Positions 1,877 through 50,956 of a stretch of DNA of 64,000 nucleotides are shown piece by piece (positions within the stretch are counted from its first letter, which is position 1; every line of letters starts with the position of its first letter). A program made the position numbers and the translations under genes. This DNA is from an uncultured bacterium (GTDB lineage: Bacteria > Patescibacteriota > Minisyncoccia > Phycocordibacterales > UBA11359): the NCBI GenBank assembly GCA_903831815.1, contig CAIKZC010000005.1, positions 69 through 64,068 of the forward strand, in the 5' to 3' direction. The notes beneath the pieces are model-generated. The model had not been told where the DNA came from. It searched no databases and was given only the letters and a program-made list of their open reading frames with translations.

Positions 1877-2645
<769 letters not shown>

Positions 2646-2796
2646 CAACGGTATTGTCACTTCGGTGGCACATACCTTATCGAGTCGATATTGTGGGTCT
2701 CGATCGAGTCCATAATGGATTTAGTAGCATCCTAAAAGCTACTGGACGATCAGGAAAGACTGGTAGAACGGAACAAAACAAAGAGTGGTATACAAC

Positions 2797-2838
2797 AAAA
2801 AACTTCGCCTTTAAACGGGCGAAGTTTTTTGTTTTCTC
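2797..2838 (+). terminator. Rho-independent terminator downstream of 16S
   Basis: AAACTTCGCC-TTTAAAC-GGGCGAAGTTT hairpin followed by TTTTTGTTTT. No 23S or tRNA follows. Confidence 0.7.
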
Positions 2839-2927
2839 AAAATTTTAAAAAAATATTAAATAAAAAAACACCACCGCGCCGATGAGGGCAAGGTGATGCT
2901 ACTTGTTGGTGTATCTTCGGGTATTGA

Positions 2928-3635
2928 TTATTGTGTTGGGGCTTCCTTCGGCAGATAAGCCTCATAACCACCATCGCGTAAGAAACCCAATGGTCTGAAC
3001 GGTTCGAGAACATTGAGTGCCGTGATTAGTTCTGGAATGAGGTATTTACGATCCATCTGTCCATATTCAATCATGACCGGATCTGCTACTTCTGGTTCGC
3101 TCTTTTGGCGTAAGAGCTGACTGTTTCCTTCCATGGCCAGCTGAACCAGATGGTCGTTTATGTGTCCACGCAGGTCTTCTGGGTCTGCACAAAGAACATA
3201 GTCGTCCGAACATCTGACACCTGCGCCACATACCTTGTAGTGCACATATTGGTAGGCTTTGCCAAGTTTCTCCACTTCTTCGTTTGGAGTGATTTTGTAG
3301 AGAAAACAGCAAAAGGCTCCAATAACGGAGAAGAACAGAAGTTGTGATGAAATCAGGATCAGTGCCAGCGATGGGTCTTTTCCGGTCCAAGTCTGGCTGA
3401 AGCCCAGACTCCACTCGAGATAGATAGTTGCTGACAGAAGGAGACATAAAATCAGGCAAATGAAACCGTAGCGGTGAATCCGGCGATTTCGATTGTAAGC
3501 ATTCATTGTGTCTCTGGTAGGATTGACACCCTTCGTACGCTCTTGCCACTCCACGCACAGTTCTTCGTTCACCAAGCCTTCCTGAATCAGTTCACGGAAG
3601 GTAAGCTCGCGACTCTTTCGTTCATGAACTTTCAT
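2928..3635 (-). CDS. Hypothetical membrane protein (GC-rich cassette A')
   Basis: 235 aa ORF with two predicted TM segments. It is GC-enriched relative to neighbours. Own promoter TTGCAA-17-TATGGT and SD AGGAGG 5 nt before the ATG. Divergent from cassette A. Confidence 0.55.
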   Translation of the reverse strand: MKVHERKSRELTFRELIQEGLVNEELCVEWQERTKGVNPTRDTMNAYNRNRRIHRYGFICLILCLLLSATIYLEWSLGFSQTWTGKDPSLALILISSQLLFFSVIGAFCCFLYKITPNEEVEKLGKAYQYVHYKVCGAGVRCSDDYVLCADPEDLRGHINDHLVQLAMEGNSQLLRQKSEPEVADPVMIEYGQMDRKYLIPELITALNVLEPFRPLGFLRDGGYEAYLPKEAPTQ

Positions 3636-3729
3636 AGAACCTCCTGTAAAAGGACGTCTTCAACCCATAACTCTGGTCAGACCATACAATATTTATTGAA
3701 ATATTGCAATAGTTTAGTTTTTTAAAAAA

Positions 3730-3757
3730 TTGACATTTGTATATACTCTGATATAAT
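3730..3757 (+). promoter_or_regulatory. Near-consensus sigma70 promoter for cassette A
   Basis: TTGACA-16nt-TATAAT, followed by an about 80-nt leader and SD TAGGAGAATACC-ATG. A CAATATTTATTGAAATATTG palindrome sits just upstream and overlaps the divergent A' promoter. Confidence 0.65.
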
Positions 3758-3842
3758 TTTGTTAGAAATGTTTGAAAAGAGGATAGACTGCGATTTTCGC
3801 AGCCACTCCGATTAAAACATCGTTCTCTGCTAGGAGAATACC

Positions 3843-4514
3843 ATGACCATGTCAATGGGCATGACCCAGAGTCTGAAGCCGGAAATGTCGCTTCGGCAGA
3901 CTCTGAAAGCCGAACAGCGACAGGAGATGGTGGCGTCCATGACTTTGAGCATTCGGCTCGAGTTGGTCGCAGCCCTGCACAACGGACCTAACGGCACCAC
4001 AACCATCAGACCGATGGCGAGTTGTGTCCATTGCGGTCGCAATCTCACACCGCTCGAGATCATTAAGGGATTCAACAACGACCCGAATGATTTCTCGACG
4101 GCATGCACTGGATGTAAGCGGCGTTTCGATCCGACGCTAGTCTGGCATGATAACGTTGGCTCCATCGAATTGCCGTTCTACTGCAATATGCAGACTCAGT
4201 CGCGACTCGCTGGTCTAGAGACTTTGAGTCCTGTGGATTTCAAGGCGAAGGAACCGGCCCTCTACCACAGTGCGATTGTGCATAACGGCACGCTCAAGGC
4301 AGCTTTCCAACGGCTTAACATCGAATACTCGTTTGTGGAGATCACTGATCCAGCTATCAAGGTGAAACAGTTCCTTGGTAGGTTGCCAGACACGATCATC
4401 GCAGAAGTGTCTGGTCTCAAGCTTGCTGTCGTTCGGCGTCTGCGCAAAAAGTATCGCATCAAAGCATGTACTCAACGTGTGATGCTGGAGCAAGCCCAGG
4501 AATCTGTGGCGTAG
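3843..4514 (+). CDS. Hypothetical protein with CxxC...CxxC zinc-ribbon (GC-rich cassette A)
   Basis: 223 aa ORF, GC-enriched. CVHCGRN...ACTGCKRRF zinc ribbon. Strong SD. Confidence 0.6.
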   Translation: MTMSMGMTQSLKPEMSLRQTLKAEQRQEMVASMTLSIRLELVAALHNGPNGTTTIRPMASCVHCGRNLTPLEIIKGFNNDPNDFSTACTGCKRRFDPTLVWHDNVGSIELPFYCNMQTQSRLAGLETLSPVDFKAKEPALYHSAIVHNGTLKAAFQRLNIEYSFVEITDPAIKVKQFLGRLPDTIIAEVSGLKLAVVRRLRKKYRIKACTQRVMLEQAQESVA

Positions 4515-4536
4515 TTGCGTATCACTACCAACAATA

Positions 4537-4576
4537 CCCACTCAAAGTCAAAGGACTGCGAGTGGGTTCTTTTTTA
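4537..4576 (+). terminator. Rho-independent terminator of cassette A
   Basis: ACCCACTC-...-GAGTGGGT stem followed by TCTTTTTT. Confidence 0.7.
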
Positions 4577-4663
4577 CTCCTCTTTCATTACGCAGTTTCA
4601 TGTTTCTTCAAGATACGGATTAAACTTGCTTGGTTTGGCAAAGCATGATAAAGTACTAAAACC

Positions 4664-4909
4664 ATGAAAAAAGATATCCATCCAACATACCAGGACGCCA
4701 AAGTGATCTGCGCTTGCGGTGCGACTTTTACTGTTGGTTCAACCAAAAAAGACATCAATATTGAAATCTGCAGTACTTGCCATCCATTCTATTCTGGCAC
4801 AGAGAAGTCCCTAGACGCTGCTGGTCGCGTTGAGAAATTTAAAGCTCGAGCTGCAAAAACCGTTGTCAAAACTCCAAAAGCCAAAAAGGCAGCTCCAAAA
4901 GCTGAATAG
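4664..4909 (+). CDS. rpmE: 50S ribosomal protein L31
   Basis: MKKDIHPTY...CACG...F...[12 protein letters not shown] is the L31 signature with its Cys pairs. Confidence 0.92.
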
Positions 4910-5902: not shown

Positions 5903-5990
5903 GCCCTTTTGAGGGACTCACGGAAGGCGACGGCCTGAGTGTGAAGGAAATTTCCAGCAGGAAATTTACCTGTGCCCTCAAAAGGGCTTA
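5901..5990 (+). repeat. Palindromic intergenic element, copy 1 (core in B orientation)
   Basis: Outer stem AAGCCCTTTTGAGGG / CCCTCAAAAGGGCTT. Core contains AAATTTCC-AGCA-GGAAATTT and GGCGACGGCC hairpins. The core is the reverse complement of the core at 50300, identical over about 35 nt. Confidence 0.8.
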
Positions 5991-6041
5991 TTCGTAGCTT
6001 TCTGTTGCATTCCTAGGCATTATCTGCTAAAATCGTCGGAT

Positions 6042-6797
6042 ATGTCAGAAATTCAAAACAAAAACGCAACACTAGTGGAATCGATGTTTAAAGCTGGAAG
6101 TCATTTTGCTTACACCCGCGCACGACGCCACCCCACAGCAGCACCCTTCATTTTTGGCCTCAAAAACCGTGTCGAGATTTTCGATTTGGAGAAAACCAGT
6201 GAAAAGTTAGTTGAAGCCAAAGGATTCATCGCTTCTTGCGCACGAACAGGTAAAAAAGTCTTGTTTGTCGGTACCAAGAACGAAGCCCGAGACGCAGTTC
6301 TACGAATCGCTTCAGCTTTGGAAATGCCTTATGTTAACCTCCGATGGATCGGTGGCACTCTCACAAACTTCCCACAAATTCGAAAGAGAATTGATAAATA
6401 TGAGGATCTGATGGCAAAGCGTGAAAAAGGCGAGTTGGTAAAATACACGAAGAAAGAGCGCTTGCTTATCGATCGTGAAATCGCCAAACTTGAAAACTCT
6501 TTTTTAGGAATTGTGTCCATGAAAGAAATGCCGGCTGCCGTAGTGATTGTTGATTCAGAAAAAGAGCACATTGCTTTGGCTGAAATTAAAAAACAAGGTA
6601 TTCCGGTCATCGCTATTTGCGGTTCTGATTGCAATCTAAAAAAAGTTACATATCCTATCCCAGCTAACGACAGCGCAAAGGCTAGCGTTGAATTTCTCCT
6701 AAAAGAGCTGTCAGCTGCGTATACAGAAGGAACGAAAGAAGCGGCAAAAGCAAGAATAACAGAAGTAAAAGTTGCAACAGTCGAAGTTAAAAAGTAA
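6042..6797 (+). CDS. rpsB: 30S ribosomal protein S2
   Basis: N-terminal FKAGSHFAYTRARRHP and VLFVGTK...RWIGGTLTN are S2 signatures. Leaderless or SD-less start. Confidence 0.92.
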   Translation: MSEIQNKNATLVESMFKAGSHFAYTRARRHPTAAPFIFGLKNRVEIFDLEKTSEKLVEAKGFIASCARTGKKVLFVGTKNEARDAVLRIASALEMPYVNLRWIGGTLTNFPQIRKRIDKYEDLMAKREKGELVKYTKKERLLIDREIAKLENSFLGIVSMKEMPAAVVIVDSEKEHIALAEIKKQGIPVIAICGSDCNLKKVTYPIPANDSAKASVEFLLKELSAAYTEGTKEAAKARITEVKVATVEVKK

Positions 6798-7834: not shown

Positions 7835-7907
7835 GCCACCTTAGCTCATTCGGTAGAGCGCCACTTTTGTAAAGTGGATGCGCCCAGTTCGAATCTGGGA
7901 GGTGGCT
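7835..7907 (+). tRNA. tRNA-Thr (anticodon UGU)
   Basis: 73-nt cloverleaf. Acceptor GCCACCT/AGGTGGC, D stem GCTC/GAGC, anticodon stem CCACT/AGTGG with loop TTTGTAA (UGU), T arm CCCAG-TTCGAAT-CTGGG. CCA is not encoded. Confidence 0.88.
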
Positions 7908-7970
7908 CAGTAAAGTTCCTACTGTGTATAAAGTACATATCAATACAATCTTTTGGTGTATTTTATATAC

Positions 7971-10921: not shown

Positions 10922-11617
10922 ATGAACAACAAAATTGGTCATCCTCATCCTCTAACTTCCGTAATCAGGGATATATATACTATTTTCCGCGAGATCGGTT
11001 ACGATGTTGCGCAAGGTCCGGAACTGGAAACCGAATTTTACAATTTTGATGCTCTTAATATTCCAAAAGACCATCCGGCTCGAGATATGCAGGACACTTT
11101 TTGGATAAAATCAAAAGAACGAAAGGTTTTGAGAACGCACACTTCGGCTGTGCAGATTAGATACATGGAAAAACATGAACCTCCTTTCAAAATTATCGTG
11201 CCAGGCAAAGTTTTTAGAAATGAGGCAACCGATGCGACACACGAAGCTCAATTTCATCAGATAGAAGCGCTTTGCGTAGGTAAGGACGTTTCGCTCGCAG
11301 ACCTCAAAGGTGTCCTTACTTATTTTTTCAAAAGATTTTTCGGTGATGATGTGGTCGTGCGATTCAGACCGAGTTTTTTTGCATTCACTGAGCCAAGTGT
11401 GGAGGTTGATATGGAGTGGAAAGGTAAATGGTTGGAAATGGGTGGTGCTGGAATGGTCCATCCAAAGGTCTTCGAATCTAGTGGTGTTGATGCTATAAAA
11501 TGGTCGGGCTTCGCTTTTGGTTTTGGAATTGATCGTTTAGTAATGCTTAAATATGGCATCGATGATATTCGACTTTTATATCAAGGCGATCTGCGATTAG
11601 TTAATCAATTTTCATGA
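10922..11617 (+). CDS. pheS: Phenylalanyl-tRNA synthetase alpha subunit (catalytic core only; start uncertain, TTG at 10895 possible)
   Basis: Class II motifs FRNEATDATHEAQFHQIE, FAFTEPSVEVD and GAGMVHPKV...GFAFGFGIDRL. The N-terminal extension seen in most PheS is missing. Confidence 0.88.
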   Translation: MNNKIGHPHPLTSVIRDIYTIFREIGYDVAQGPELETEFYNFDALNIPKDHPARDMQDTFWIKSKERKVLRTHTSAVQIRYMEKHEPPFKIIVPGKVFRNEATDATHEAQFHQIEALCVGKDVSLADLKGVLTYFFKRFFGDDVVVRFRPSFFAFTEPSVEVDMEWKGKWLEMGGAGMVHPKVFESSGVDAIKWSGFAFGFGIDRLVMLKYGIDDIRLLYQGDLRLVNQFS

Positions 11618-13590
11618 TAGTTTCATATAAATGGCTTCAAACATATTTCAAGGAAAAATTGCCAGCACCGGCAAAAGTGGCTGAAGCTTTTACTTTCGGC
11701 GCATTTGAGGTTGAGGTGGTGGAAGAAGTCCATGGCAAAAATGGTGCGGATGGAAACGATACGACTATCGATCTGAAAGTTTTGCCTGACCGCGCATGTT
11801 ACGCACTGTCGCACCGAGGCATTGCGTATGAGCTGTCGGCTATTACCGGTCAAAGCTCGCTGGTTTTTGAAAATAAAATTGTGGGAGAAATTGAAAATGA
11901 AAAAGCGGATTCCGAAGAAAAAGTTTCGGTAACCGTCATTGAACCGTCTTTGTGTCAGCGTTATTGCGCACGTTTTATAAAAAATGTTTCTGTCGGTGCT
12001 TCCCCAGAATGGTTGCAGGAAAGACTTACGGCTGTCGGACAACGTTCGATCAATAACATTGTTGATGTCACGAATTTTGTTATGCTCGATATAGGTCAAC
12101 CATTGCATGCTTTTGATGCCGATAAAGTAAAGGGCGGCATCGTGGTGCGATTGGCAAAAGAAGGAGAGGTTGTTGAATTGCTTCCCGAGAAAGGTTCCAC
12201 TGTTAGCCGCAGTATTACACTTCAATCATTCGATCTGATCATTGCTGATGATGAAGGTCCGATCGCGATAGCGGGTGTCAAAGGAGGAATACGCACGGCA
12301 GTAACGGCAACAACAAGAAATTTGATCATAGAGTCGGCCAATTTTGATGCAGTTTCGGTACGCAAAACTTCGACGCGACTCGCATTACGTAACGATGCTT
12401 CCAAACGTTTTGAAAATAGATTGTCGGTCGATTTCGCCGAGCAAGCTATGAAAGAAGTTTCAACTCTCATCAAAAAAGTTTCCACAAAAGCATCTCTCGG
12501 AGAAATCACGGATGTTTTTTCCGGTCAAACAAAGCAAACCAAGATTAGTGTGTCAAAAGATTTTATTTCCGCGCGATTGGGAGGTGAGTTTTCTACGGAG
12601 CAGATTGAAGATATTTTTTCTCGTTTGCAAATTGCGTTCGAGAAGAAAGGTAATGGTTACACACTGACTATACCGTCAGCTCGTTTGGATCTCAATATTC
12701 CCGAGGACATGGTTGAGGAAGTTGGCCGGATTTATGGGTATAACAAAATTACGCCGAAAATTCCCGAAAAAATTTCCGGAGCGATTCCTGTCAATCATGT
12801 TGCTTATTGGACGGAGAAAATAAAAGATTCATTGTTTGAAAACGGATTTTCTGAAGTTCAAACCTCTTCTTTTGCCGTAAGTGGCGACATCGAGATTCAA
12901 AACCCTTTAGCTTCGGACAAGAAATTTTTGCGCAATAACCTTTCCGAGAATTTGTTGTTAGCACTTGAGCAAAATAGCAAGAACGCACCTTTGTTTGGGA
13001 CGGATGAAATCAAAATATTCGAAGTTGGTACAGTATTTTCTTCCAAAGGCGAGTACGTTGCGCTCGGAATCGGTGCAAATATAACCAAAAACATAAAGAA
13101 AAAGGAGCAGATGACTGCCGAGATGGTAAATAAAGCTTTTCAGACTCTTTCTGAAGTTGTGGGCAAGAAATTAGAAATGCCAAAAATAAAGAATGGCACC
13201 GGTGCTGTCGCAGAAATCAATTTATCCGAGATTATTTCCAATCTATCGACCCCGACAAAATGGGATATTAATAAATTCTCAGGCAGTTCAAAATATGTTC
13301 CATTTTCCGCTTATCCTTTTATGGTCAGAGATGTGGCGGTCTTCGTGCCAGGCAATGTTTCTGAAAAAGAAGTTTCATCTGTGATCTCTTCCGCCACAAG
13401 CTCGCTCATGATCAGGCTCGATCTGTTTGATGTGTTTACCAAAAAGTTTGAGGGCGGGGAAGACAAAACATCATATGCGTTCCATATTGTTTTTCAGTCA
13501 TACGAGCGAACTTTGCGCGAAGAAGAAATAAATACGATCATGAAAAATGTTTCCGATGCATTGGCGGCAAAATCTTGGCAGGTGAGATAA
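11614..13590 (+). CDS. pheT: Phenylalanyl-tRNA synthetase beta subunit (reduced form)
   Basis: Overlaps the pheS stop by 4 nt. B3/4 domain-like N-terminus and a C-terminal FDVF anticodon-binding-like region. pheS-pheT synteny. Confidence 0.8.
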   Translation: MIVSYKWLQTYFKEKLPAPAKVAEAFTFGAFEVEVVEEVHGKNGADGNDTTIDLKVLPDRACYALSHRGIAYELSAITGQSSLVFENKIVGEIENEKADSEEKVSVTVIEPSLCQRYCARFIKNVSVGASPEWLQERLTAVGQRSINNIVDVTNFVMLDIGQPLHAFDADKVKGGIVVRLAKEGEVVELLPEKGSTVSRSITLQSFDLIIADDEGPIAIAGVKGGIRTAVTATTRNLIIESANFDAVSVRKTSTRLALRNDASKRFENRLSVDFAEQAMKEVSTLIKKVSTKASLGEITDVFSGQTKQTKISVSKDFISARLGGEFSTEQIEDIFSRLQIAFEKKGNGYTLTIPSARLDLNIPEDMVEEVGRIYGYNKITPKIPEKISGAIPVNHVAYWTEKIKDSLFENGFSEVQTSSFAVSGDIEIQNPLASDKKFLRNNLSENLLLALEQNSKNAPLFGTDEIKIFEVGTVFSSKGEYVALGIGANITKNIKKKEQMTAEMVNKAFQTLSEVVGKKLEMPKIKNGTGAVAEINLSEIISNLSTPTKWDINKFSGSSKYVPFSAYPFMVRDVAVFVPGNVSEKEVSSVISSATSSLMIRLDLFDVFTKKFEGGEDKTSYAFHIVFQSYERTLREEEINTIMKNVSDALAAKSWQVR

Positions 13591-13620
13591 TGAGTTAAGG
13601 GGTTAAAAAAATTTAAATAT

Positions 13621-13673
13621 AAAAAAGGAGACCCGTTTCGCGGAACCTGTTGTAGGTTCTTTGAAACGGGTCT
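13621..13673 (-). terminator. Rho-independent terminator acting on the minus strand
   Basis: On the minus strand, AGACCCGTTTC...GAAACGGGTCT is an 11-bp perfect stem followed by CCTTTTTT. On the plus strand the hairpin is preceded by an A-run and followed by no T-run. Confidence 0.7.
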
Positions 13674-14060
13674 AGTGCTCGGGCCTAGGTTGTACCTAAA
13701 CCTCTACACGGAGGATGGAGGCGGGTGGCAGTGTCATCGCATGTTCCAATCCAGGGTCACGCCGCGCGAGCCCTTTGTCGGAGACCGGACTTGATGCGCC
13801 GGATGCAGCGGATCGGAAGATCTATGGCCATCGCATTTCTTTTTGTGTCGACTCTCAAGATTTGCGTCGGCCACTTGATCGCCAGGGGCTCTGGGTCCTT
13901 CCTTCCGGTACTTGCCCAAGATGCCCAACCGATTCCAGGAATTGTCCTGGATACACAAACAAACACTTCTTTTCCCATGATATAAGTTCCTTTTCCCATA
14001 GCCGGGAACGGTACCTTGTAAGGCAGTTGTACCTGATCCATCAGGACAGCTTCATACTCC
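13674..14060 (-). ncRNA. Candidate structured RNA (identity unresolved; GC-rich, promoter-to-terminator unit of about 440 nt)
   Basis: GC-rich block with no convincing ORF: both strands carry overlapping short ORFs and there is no SD at candidate starts. Minus-strand promoter TTGACA-16-TATACT lies at about 14068-14095 and the terminator at 13621-13673. Contains a GNRA-capped CCGGAAGGAAGG hairpin reminiscent of SRP RNA helix 8 and an AAGUCCGGUCUCC 13-mer one substitution from RNase P CR-I, but the overall architecture fits neither. Confidence 0.4.
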
Positions 14061-14067
14061 GTCGTCA

Positions 14068-14095
14068 AGTATAGCACATTCAGAGCATTTGTCAA
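14068..14095 (-). promoter_or_regulatory. Sigma70-like promoter, minus strand, driving the candidate RNA
   Basis: Reverse complement reads TTGACA-aatgctctgaatgtgc-TATACT. Confidence 0.55.
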
Positions 14096-14188
14096 TGGAT
14101 AAAAATGTGTCTGTAAATGAATCAAAAATCACACGGTTTTTCAACACAAAAAGCCTTTGTAATTGCTTTCAAAAAATGCTATACTTAG

Positions 14189-16300
<2,112 letters not shown>

Positions 16301-22435: not shown

Positions 22436-22643
22436 ACAGGGAATATTAGCACTTTTCGTGCTTTAGGCAAAACGTCAGAAAAAAGTAAAAAGCACCCTGC
22501 AAGTATCTTTTACTTTATTCTAATGTCTTTACAAATATAATATATAATGTATAATAATTTCAGATGGAAAATTGAAAAACTTGCGGTTCGCTTTCCTCGC
22601 GTGTTACGAGGAAGGTACGCTGCACTGTGAAAGGAGGTAGCTA

Positions 22644-23291
22644 ATGGCTACCAAAACCATAGGTGTGGAGCAAAGGTTCGAATTGCTGGCTAAACTGGCA
22701 GCTCACCTTGATTGGGACTCGATTGACTCAAGGTCTGTCCAAGAGATAATCGATCATCCGGCCATTCCCGGCCAGCAGTTTACTCTCTTCCTCAAGAACG
22801 GTTGTAGATTTTCGTTTGGCGACCTAAAGATCGCTCCCGCGCCCTTTGATCCAGTCGCTTTCATTAGTAAAGGATGGAATATCGTCCTCGAAGAACATGA
22901 CAAGATGACAGGAGGTCTCGTTGAAGTTGATTTTAATCAGGTCGACTTCGAGGACTGTCTCGAGGAAGGTGAGACCATGATCACTGGTGAAGTGAAACTG
23001 ACGCGTCTCAAAGAGCGTAAGCGGATCCGTTACGGCGCCGTCACTTTTATGGGTCTTCTGAACGATTATCAGACTCGGGAAGTGAACAGTGTTCTTGAAA
23101 CGCTATTCCGCACCAAAAGTATTGTCCACCTCGATTTCTTTGGTGATGTTCTGCTTGGCCCAAACGGTAACCGATGCGTGTTGTGTCTCGATAGGGTCAG
23201 TGGTGGTCGGTGGATTGGTACCTACCGCCCCCTCGCGATTCATTGGTATCGTCGGTTTCTAACCCCCGTTTGTTCGCAAGTCAGTGTTTGA
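22644..23291 (+). CDS. Hypothetical protein, GC-rich cassette B (paralog of cassette C)
   Basis: 215 aa, GC-enriched, strong SD GAAAGGAGGTAGCTA-ATG. Shares FD..F...GW.IV.EH and CV.CL..R..G..W.GTYR.L...W blocks with C. Confidence 0.6.
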   Translation: MATKTIGVEQRFELLAKLAAHLDWDSIDSRSVQEIIDHPAIPGQQFTLFLKNGCRFSFGDLKIAPAPFDPVAFISKGWNIVLEEHDKMTGGLVEVDFNQVDFEDCLEEGETMITGEVKLTRLKERKRIRYGAVTFMGLLNDYQTREVNSVLETLFRTKSIVHLDFFGDVLLGPNGNRCVLCLDRVSGGRWIGTYRPLAIHWYRRFLTPVCSQVSV

Positions 23292-23353: not shown

Positions 23354-23564
23354 TTATTTTCGGATACCTTTACAAATACCATCAAATAATGTATAATATA
23401 CCAAGATTGAACGTTGAAAAACTTGCAAGTGGTCATAGCCAAAAGGTGCGGAAAGGCTCAATAATTCGGCATTTATTGGCTATGACTACCAATGTGGTAC
23501 GTCCTCTAGCAAAAACTTGTCAGCGTGTCCGTATTACGGGCGTGCTAAAACAAAGGAGACTGTC

Positions 23565-27709: not shown

Positions 27710-27838
27710 ACACAAATATTACATATTGCATTTATGTGTAATTTATGGCATTATGCAGCGCAGAATACGGTATCGAGCCACCTCAAACCCCGGCTATGTA
27801 GTCGGAAGGGGAATGTGCAGAAACCGTAAAGGAGTTCT

Positions 27839-28375
27839 ATGTCATACGTGTCACATTTTCTTTCTCTACCCTTTTACCAGCAAATTCCGGCGGCGGCACT
27901 CATCGTTTTGATTGCTGTCTGCCTACTCCGATTGGTCAGAAGACCTGGCTTATTTCGCGGTAGCAACTGGAAGCCTGTCGTTTGCATATGTTCTAATGGC
28001 CGTGGTCAAATTGGGGTTGTTCTCCAACGTGATAAGCGCAAAGCTTCCAAATCGCATTGGAAAGAAATGCGGAAGTATATCAAGGAAGATAAAAAGAAGG
28101 GGAAAATCTACTCACCCAGAGTGTGGCGTCCCGTAATCGAATACGGATCAAAATTCGATAGGGACATGGTCTTTGTTTTTGATCATGACAATAACGGGTT
28201 GAAACAATTACTCGACTTATGTCTTGTTGAAGAAGACAACTTTTTTGTTTATTTTGAGCCAGTTCCTGATGGAAACAAAACGTTCAAAGATGCCTACCGG
28301 CACTTCTTCGGTCGGGAATACCAACTTCCGTGGCCAGAGAATGACGATGCCTGTTGGTGGCTTGGTAAGGCTTGA
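27839..28375 (+). CDS. Hypothetical protein with N-terminal TM helix, GC-rich cassette D
   Basis: 178 aa, GC-enriched, SD AAAGGAGTTCT-ATG. Own terminator at 28398-28436 (CCCGAGGAAGCGC...GCGCTTTCTCGGG followed by a T-run). Confidence 0.55.
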   Translation: MSYVSHFLSLPFYQQIPAAALIVLIAVCLLRLVRRPGLFRGSNWKPVVCICSNGRGQIGVVLQRDKRKASKSHWKEMRKYIKEDKKKGKIYSPRVWRPVIEYGSKFDRDMVFVFDHDNNGLKQLLDLCLVEEDNFFVYFEPVPDGNKTFKDAYRHFFGREYQLPWPENDDACWWLGKA

Positions 28376-50388: not shown

Positions 50389-50581
50389 ATGACTGACAGT
50401 TTCAAAAATATTGCAAATTTAGGCCGTTTTTTGGAAAACAAGAATACATAGACCTATCGTAATACCTCGGGATTTCAAGGGATGAATATATTAAAATTAT
50501 TGATTCGTTTTGATTTTTTTAAAAAAACCACCCGCGAGCGCAAGGTGGTTTTTCCTTGGTTCGAAGGTGGGTTTGAGACGG

Positions 50582-50956
50582 TTAATTCCCGGTGGCGTGG
50601 ACAGGCGTCGCAGGTGATGATATTGGTGCACAGCCATTTTGCTCAACCGGCGGTCTCCTGGTTCGAGGCAATGTCTTTGCATTCCTCGATTTGTCCAGAT
50701 CATCGCGCCAGCGTTGGATCTCATCAAGATCGATCGCCGGTAGAACGAACGTCAGGCCACAATTACGCGCGAAATTGATCGCGTCATGGAATGTTGGCGT
50801 TTTTTTCGTCTTCTGGCAATGAACTGCCCATTGGCTTGAAACGATCCAACCTTCTTTTGAGGCATCATCTAATGCCGAGAGTTGAAGGACACTAACTTCC
50901 TTGCTACGCGTCACCACGGTATGTGATGAAGTTCCCGGTAGGTCTTTGAGGGGCAC
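50582..50956 (-). CDS. Hypothetical protein, GC-rich cassette H (GTG start)
   Basis: 124 aa. Minus-strand promoter TTGACT-17-TATGCT at about 51020-51050, about 75-nt leader, SD GGAGGG 5 nt before GTG. Terminator on the minus strand at about 50515-50560. Confidence 0.5.
   Translation of the reverse strand: MPLKDLPGTSSHTVVTRSKEVSVLQLSALDDASKEGWIVSSQWAVHCQKTKKTPTFHDAINFARNCGLTFVLPAIDLDEIQRWRDDLDKSRNAKTLPRTRRPPVEQNGCAPISSPATPVHATGN

Follow-up and report, generated by a model that had tools for sequence, protein, structure and literature searches.

Genes repressed through CsrA or RsmA carry a characteristic leader: classically, one GGA lies in an A-NGGA-N hairpin loop and another at the start site, with a described consensus and site spacing and a dimer that can bridge ~50 nt (PMC7652899). 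Csr/Rsm sponges such as CsrB and RsmY/Z combine a strong promoter, a rho-independent terminator, poor sequence conservation and GGA in loops. In dual-function small RNAs (sRNAs; SgrS/SgrT, SR1/SR1P, RNAIII/hld), a short RNA with a dedicated promoter and terminator combines a conserved domain with a 40-70-codon open reading frame (ORF) that drifts between relatives. Here, we compare with these systems a GC-rich block between pheT and gyrB in a 64,000-nt stretch of an uncultured member of the Patescibacteriota (contig CAIKZC010000005.1, positions 69 to 64,068), hereafter the window. The block forms an independent transcription unit on the minus strand, driven by a strong promoter and closed by a terminator of its own. 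In both place and layout it corresponds to an orthologous unit retained between pheT and gyrB in a clade of Patescibacteria. We read it, with moderate confidence, as a monocistronic small gene whose mRNA consists of a regulatory 5' leader and a short basic ORF.

A preliminary description of the window, made without database searches, singled out the GC-rich block at 13621-14095. It proposed an independent minus-strand unit with a TTGACA-16-TATACT promoter at about 14068-14095 and a terminator with an 11-bp hairpin just past the pheT stop. All of this is borne out. GC content was measured at 52-59% versus ~40% (0.525-0.59 in 200-nt windows over 13600-13900, versus ~0.38-0.45 in the flanks), and both elements were located in the sequence. 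Of the 12 promoter positions, 11 match the consensus, and the -10 is extended by TG; transcription presumably starts at ~14061. The terminator, read from the sequence and the minimum-free-energy (MFE) fold, has two tiers, an outer stem of 11 bp (AGACCCGUUUC...GAAACGGGUCU, 13673-13629 on the minus strand) and an inner stem of 6 bp (GAACCU/AGGUUC), separated by an internal loop and followed by CC and U6 that end at 13621. A GC-rich hairpin with a U-run directly after it is what defines an intrinsic terminator, and here both stems are followed by CCUUUUUU; a simple terminator scan missed it because its loop exceeds 8 nt. It faces the pheT stop, ending 31 nt from it, and lies ~440 nt downstream of the promoter. 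Within the 3' untranslated region (UTR), CAUCCUCCG (~13716-13708) can pair at 9 of 10 positions with the 5' end of the transcript (CGGAGUAUG, 14061-14053), a pairing that is present in the MFE fold and was not seen in the relatives. The small unit is a genuine transcription unit that had not been called as a gene, and the sequence of its 73-aa ORF is not among the entries of the protein collection.

Relatives were gathered by a PheT protein search, which yielded contigs at 61-72% identity, plus two at ~50% and the distant metagenome locus L084. The unit occurs at the equivalent place after pheT in 10 independent relatives with PheT ~40-78% identical (L161, L163, L164, L166, L167, L168, L169, L084, L171 and L172); L162 is identical to L161 over the unit, as is L165 to L164. 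The shared minus-strand layout is a promoter, a leader of ~65-110 nt, a GGAG/AGGA motif, a start codon, an ORF of 39-73 codons and a strong terminator facing pheT. The relatives' promoter reads TTGAC(A/T)-17-TG(n)TATA(A/C)T (TTGACAAA...TG(c/a)TATA(A/C)T), with a weaker -10 in L168, and it is the sole part of the window element that BLAST can align to the relatives. Among the closer relatives, sequence similarity extends over promoter, leader and terminator, and two leader hairpins (P2 and P3) and the two-tier terminator are recognisably alike in the window and the relatives. The terminator architecture, outer stem / AAA / GAAC...GUUC / outer stem, recurs in L163, L167, L168 and L169. Two scans of public contigs confirmed conserved pheT-gyrB synteny; they returned distant relatives only and no nucleotide homologue. 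Nothing beyond the promoter was aligned by nhmmer and blastn searches of the element against 160-168 loci, and BLAST of phage and plasmid collections gave no match to it. In species-level genomes, the closest PheT proteins (43-45% identity) are labelled Kaiserbacteria, Patescibacteria and Saccharibacteria.

The conserved structure is the ~85-100-nt 5' leader rather than the GC-rich body. An alignment of six independent leaders contains three helices: P1 (10 bp), P2 (7 bp), which presents an NGGA loop closed by A-U, and P3 (9 bp), in which CC-n-UUUCC pairs with the GGAA..GG of the ribosome-binding-like motif. Of the alignment cells, 90.3% are paired, and both sides change in 16 of the 26 pairs, values reached by none of 500 shuffles; controls slid along the alignment gave at most 5 both-sided pairs. 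Helix 3 in the relatives is 85% paired, with 4 pairs changed on both sides, and most relatives have leader z-scores between -3 and -5.8. Folding over orthologous regions, suggested in the preliminary description, thus shows leader helices that covary across six relatives, and the leader of the relatives is a real structured RNA. A covariance model (CM R1) built from five of the leaders recovered the sixth (L169) at 50.8 bits, within a range of 51-102 bits for the relatives, and with default filters it found neither further copies nor false positives in 1.78 Mb of loci or the window. The leader is not in Rfam 15, in which neither the window region nor the L163 leader matches a family. The window leader retains P2 and P3 but little of P1. 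The P2 core CCUGA-UGGA-UCAGG lies at 14045-14032 and its A-NGGA-U loop at 14041-14036, and P3 buries the GG of the motif AAGGAA (13992-13987). The NGGA loop also occurs in L161, L163, L164, L166, L167, L168, L169 and L084, and its stems covary in the relatives.

The preliminary description's idea of a structured RNA therefore holds for the leader and fails for the body. Without leader and terminator, the folding z-score is -1.35 in the window and +1.8 to -3.2 in the relatives, on which grounds we rejected a structured GC-rich body. For the full transcript the two strands score much alike (minus -3.2, plus -3.9), as a palindromic terminator would bring about, and k-mer enrichment across the bodies found no shared motif. 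A covarying three-helix leader that sequesters a ribosome-binding-like motif in one helix and belongs to no Rfam family could also be a new riboswitch, or an RNA thermometer, controlling the small ORF without a protein factor. We consider this improbable. Base conservation falls on the NGGA loop, an A-rich linker and the paired UUUCC and GGAA strands; the sequence of the large internal loop separating P1 from P2 varies, so that no obvious ligand pocket is seen, and the hypervariable downstream gene provides no metabolic clue.

Most likely, the body itself is a small ORF that is translated into a basic peptide and evolves fast. The preliminary description saw here only short, overlapping ORFs lacking Shine-Dalgarno (SD) motifs. 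Overlapping ORFs do occur on both strands, and they are long because the U-poor composition (A-poor on the plus strand) depletes stop codons; the lack of an SD motif is wrong, as AAGGAA stands 8 nt before ATG 13978, from which the frame is open for 73 codons. The arrangement of SD-like motif and start recurs in every relative with the unit. In nine units measured, GGAG/AGGA precedes an ATG or TTG by 8-13 nt at +63 to ~+110, and L171 and L172 show the same arrangement when read from the sequence. Across the nine units, the start-codon frame has no stops versus 20 and 11 in the other two frames, a joint openness with a probability of ~1e-9 in composition-preserving shuffles. All nine peptides analysed are basic (isoelectric point, pI, 9.2-12.0; 11.4 in the window) and hydrophilic (grand average of hydropathy, GRAVY, -0.24 to -2.08). 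Selection seems to act on the peptide being translated, basic and hydrophilic rather than on its sequence. Type I toxin mRNAs, defined by a small hydrophobic membrane peptide, were discarded as candidates given these nine hydrophilic and basic peptides.

Motifs of this kind are rare at other gene starts. An SD-like 4-mer stands ahead of 3 of the 35 gene starts of the window and of 7 of the 52 from relatives, yet ahead of all the small units, so that the GGAG/AGGA before every unit's start is clearly selected. Housekeeping genes have no SD-like motif, and the relatives' seven SD-like starts all belong to accessory or hypothetical genes. Several window genes have a TATAAT-like -10 box 6-12 nt before the start codon and look leaderless. 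The 16S gene of the window ends in ...GCUCGUGGAAUAUUUCAAUUG instead of ...GGAUCACCUCCUUA, with no CACCUCCUU near its 3' end, and its 3' tail (2629-2645) reads GGAAUAUUUCAAUUG, which lacks the canonical CCUCC anti-SD. The host thus appears to be largely SD-independent.

The other strong AAAGGAG-before-ATG genes in the window are three Pfam-less genes starting at 22644, 23565 and 27839, each behind a hairpin (Table 1). CCCGGCUAUG occurs both in the leader of the gene at 27839 and in the small unit's P3 hairpin. Such SD-led, Pfam-less genes may form a common class of accessory genes. A GC-rich intergenic patch at 50551-50800 coincides with a 124-aa minus-strand ORF (50582-50956) behind AGGAGG-N6-GTG.

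The window leader has the sequence features of a CsrA target, an ANGGAN hairpin loop and a second GGA at the ribosome-binding site. It resembles the CsrA/RsmA-repressed leaders of B. subtilis hag and E. coli glgC in the GGA of its A-N-GGA-N hairpin loop and in the second GGA, ~50 nt downstream, that overlaps the ribosome-binding motif. It differs from them in its setting, with no csrA found in the window or the fetched loci, a largely SD-independent host and a hypervariable regulated ORF. Transcripts of csrA have been reported from ultra-small groundwater prokaryotes (PMC9938205), and in the literature on CsrA or the anti-SD in Patescibacteria we found only a passing mention.

The small-gene reading implies a sequence of events. 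The near-consensus extended -10 promoter would fire at ~14061, and the ~84-nt leader would fold so that P2 presents GGA in its A-NGGA-U loop and the pyrimidine strand of P3 (ACC-n-UUCCC) pairs with GGGAA..GG, burying the GGA motif just before the AUG. Translation, gated by the opening of P3, would start at AUG 13978 and give a 73-aa, strongly basic and probably disordered peptide, and transcription would end at the strong two-tier terminator facing the pheT stop. The gate may be operated by a trans-acting, CsrA/RsmA-like factor that reads GGA in hairpin loops; alternatively, the P2-loop GGA may compete for the UUCC strand. A bolder version of this, which we offer tentatively and hold to be on balance doubtful, is that a clade of Patescibacteria in which most genes are translated without an SD retains beside gyrB a previously undescribed riboregulatory leader, with three covarying helices, an NGGA loop and a buried GGA start site, that this leader gates a highly expressed, hyper-evolving basic microprotein, that a CsrA-like protein and not the ribosome reads the GGA, and that the body, poor in U and rich in GC at third codon positions, is selected at the RNA level.

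Several observations weigh against the small gene. Transcript and peptide are both predicted. Given the 16S tail without CCUCC, AAGGAA may not act as a classical SD, and tblastn with the E. coli and B. subtilis CsrA proteins found no csrA in the window or the 168 loci, which cover a fraction of each genome. The window's own leader matches its relatives weakly: its end-to-end alignment by CM R1 scores just 6.5 bits (with filters off; E 0.22 in 641 nt), with z-scores of ~-0.8 to -1.5. The peptides cannot be aligned, at 15-39% identity versus 63-78% for PheT among the closer relatives, and each is an orphan, cluster look-ups having returned singletons or one protein called at two lengths. HMMER with the 73-aa ORF against 1.84 billion representatives gave no homologue and a single junk repeat match, the L171 ORF retrieved nothing but itself in a word-index search, and Pfam, NCBIfam and PADLOC assigned no family to any candidate ORF. 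A protein homologue of one of the short ORFs, which the preliminary description named as grounds for dropping its RNA reading, was accordingly not found in the databases searched. Codon usage is also unlike that of the host. GC content at third codon positions (GC3) is 0.58 in the window ORF versus 0.41 ± 0.07 in 38 long ORFs, the pooled third-position T is 0.16 in the small ORFs versus 0.38 in pheT, and the small-ORF bodies have 13-19% U and a GC3 of 0.43-0.82 versus 0.27-0.51 in the neighbouring pheT. Their composition may therefore be selected at the RNA level, and it is the chief reason for our limited confidence in the peptide as the selected product.

The unit could instead be a non-coding or dual-function sRNA in which the conserved 5' domain does the work, for example by titrating, as a decoy, a GGA-binding protein or some other factor, with the body a U-poor spacer whose openness is secondary. 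Conservation is confined to the promoter, leader and terminator, whereas the body diverges at the pace of neutral sequence and has a GC3 and U-poverty foreign to host coding sequence, the GGA sits in hairpin loops, and a very strong promoter with a strong terminator is typical of abundant sRNAs. We nevertheless regard such an RNA as unlikely, since the frames are open well beyond what composition gives, and always in the frame of the start codon that follows GGAG/AGGA, and the bodies contain no repeated motif. Nor is GGA enriched along the transcript, with 12 occurrences in the window versus 8.1 ± 2.4 expected and 14 on the reverse complement, and 6-12 in the relatives versus 5-7 expected. A Csr/Rsm sponge was rejected for this reason and because the bodies share no motif; unlike in the known sponges, GGA here is equally frequent on the opposite strand, and the 2-4 sites all lie in the leader. 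The unit also differs from known dual-function sRNAs, in that no base-pairing seed or target was identified and the conserved RNA immediately precedes the ORF and extends over its translation signals, as a cis-regulatory leader does.

The proximity of gyrB invites another explanation. The 14100-14233 segment upstream of gyrB is nearly identical in the relatives despite their diverged coding sequences and is a conserved gyrB regulatory region. It contains a promoter-like site that is divergent from, and back to back with, the promoter of the small unit and is followed by a 48-nt leader containing GCAGATAATTGC. Gyrase promoters are sensitive to supercoiling. The unit might then be a strong divergent promoter that sets local supercoiling and tunes a relaxation-sensitive gyrB promoter, with leader and ORF serving only to make a stable, cleanly terminated transcript. 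The two promoters lie ~60-100 nt apart in the window and its closest relatives, most genomes with the unit carry it linked to gyrB, and the product of the unit is unconstrained in sequence. This arrangement leaves the covarying helices, the NGGA loop, the fixed spacing of motif and start and the open frames unexplained. Furthermore, L001, L079 and L085 keep pheT and gyrB adjacent without the unit, and in L172 the unit adjoins pheT at ~1.9 kb from gyrB. We judge it very improbable. For the small-gene reading, the promoter and terminator, the shared place and architecture, the covarying leader helices of the relatives, the fixed motif-start spacing and the open frames are observed; translation of the ORF and its gating through P3 are inferred.

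In its size (~400 nt), its GC-richness within an AT-rich genome, its separate promoter and terminator and its two short strings resembling conserved regions (CR) I and V, the block also looks, at first sight, like an RNase P RNA (RF00010/RF00011). The preliminary description quoted AAGUCCGGUCUCC (13792-13780) as CR-I-like, GUUCCCGGCUAUGGG (14009-13995) as CR-V-like and CCGGAAGGAAGG (13908-13897) as similar to helix 8 of the signal recognition particle (SRP) RNA, and all three strings are present on the minus strand. For a divergent, permuted or degenerate classical RNA (RNase P, SRP, tmRNA or 6S), one could cite that AAGUCCGGUCUCC is a single base from CR-I/P5 of the E. coli M1 RNA, that CCCGGCUA could pair with AAGUCCGGUCUCC as a P4-like helix, and that the UGGG...CCCA hairpin has a GGAA-rich loop. 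The resemblance goes no further. Rfam 15 found no RNase P, SRP, tmRNA, 6S or other family in 13500-14300 even at E ≤ 10, and in the whole 64 kb (gathering score or E ≤ 1) it found only the 16S gene, one tRNA and a sub-threshold group I intron signal. The orthologous gaps of the relatives had no Rfam match, and ARAGORN detected no tmRNA in the window, its sole find being a tRNA-Thr at 7835-7908.

Moreover, the CR-I and SRP look-alikes lie inside the small ORF, and the CR-V look-alike is the P3 hairpin of the leader, beside the start codon; none of the three is conserved in the relatives or matched by an Rfam model. As the preliminary description had itself remarked, the RNase P strings are in the wrong order and CR-II and CR-III are missing; the CR-V-like string lies 5' of the CR-I-like one, and CR-IV is absent too. 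Relatives with ~70% identical PheT have no sequence alignable with window positions 13680-14060, and look-alikes unconserved at that distance are therefore incompatible with universally conserved catalytic cores. A classical structured RNA is effectively refuted, and we give it next to no chance.

One false lead is thereby removed: the pheT-gyrB block conceals neither an RNase P RNA nor an SRP RNA. What is added is a small gene missing from the annotation, whose leader motif is supported by covariation and has no counterpart in Rfam 15. It is among very few genes with a conserved GGA motif before the start in an SD-poor, leaderless-leaning lineage of the candidate phyla radiation, and it may therefore serve as a handle on translation control in reduced genomes. 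It also exemplifies a syntenic microprotein whose sequence is free to drift and whose expression signals are conserved. Its practical weight is modest until a transcript, peptide or binding partner is shown.

Table 1. Coordinates of the small unit, its surroundings and related features (window positions unless a locus is named)
Feature	Coordinates	Strand	Details
Sigma-70-type promoter	14068..14095	-	-35 TTGACA 14095-14090, 16-nt spacer, extended -10 TGcTATACT 14076-14068
5' leader, ~84 nt	13979..14062	-	Degenerate copy of the clade's P1/P2/P3 leader
P2 hairpin	14028..14048	-	UGU-CCUGA-[UGGA]-UCAGG-u-ACA; full-transcript MFE, CM alignment, leader alignment
P3 hairpin	13987..14011	-	CC-g-UUCCC-[GGCUAU]-GGGAA-aa-GG; from folds; stem UUCCC...GGGAA 14008-13993
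Small ORF, 73 aa (predicted)	13757..13978	-	ATG 13978 to TGA 13759-13757; MGKEVFVCVS...GLRQRARAA
3' UTR	13674..13756	-	C-rich, two CCUCC motifs
Two-tier intrinsic terminator	13621..13673	-	Sequence and MFE fold
pheT	11614-13590	+	Full Pfam domain set
gyrB	14234-16300	+	Full Pfam domain set
gyrB promoter-like site	14157..14185	+	TTGTAA-17-TATACT; context, outside the small unit
Hairpin-bearing upstream stretches of SD-led genes	22540-22643; 23520-23564; 27740-27838		
Accessory genes in the pheT-gyrB gap	L169 2751-3209; L170 3593-4084; L171 5026-5511; L082 6920-7396; L172 5392-6959		

The gap between pheT and gyrB is a hotspot of variable accessory genes, which encode proteins of 141-186 aa on either strand, most of them without Pfam domains. 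One L172 gap protein has AAA_17/AAA_18 domains. The L170 and L171 gap proteins look mutually related; by eye these genes (155-163 aa) appeared ClpP-like, an assignment that we dropped as it has no Pfam support. In L161, a second short minus-strand unit, ~200 nt long and with a separate terminator, occupies ~5990-6200, between the terminator of the small ORF and pheT, and has no Rfam match. In L086, a GC-rich block (6133-6460; 52-55% in a locus of 44% GC) that is C-rich on the minus strand sits directly downstream of pheT behind a long perfect hairpin, with no Rfam match at E ≤ 10.

Elsewhere in the window, the 16S gene (1-739 and 1973-2628) is split by an insertion of ~1.2 kb at 740-1972. Within it, group I intron models match below threshold (E 7e-5 and 8e-5), and 1042-1764 is a LAGLIDADG ORF of 240 aa (Pfam PF14528, E 1.5e-9). 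A 16S fragment at 1901-1968 sits between the insertion and the 3' half. After the 16S gene, 2629-4900 is GC-rich (up to 57%), especially at 3801-4300. This stretch has no 23S match, no Rfam match at E ≤ 1 and only doubtful ORFs, at 2928-3635 (minus strand) and 3843-4514 (plus strand), with a GC3 of 0.63. It is probably the first of the two GC-rich islands counted in the preliminary description.

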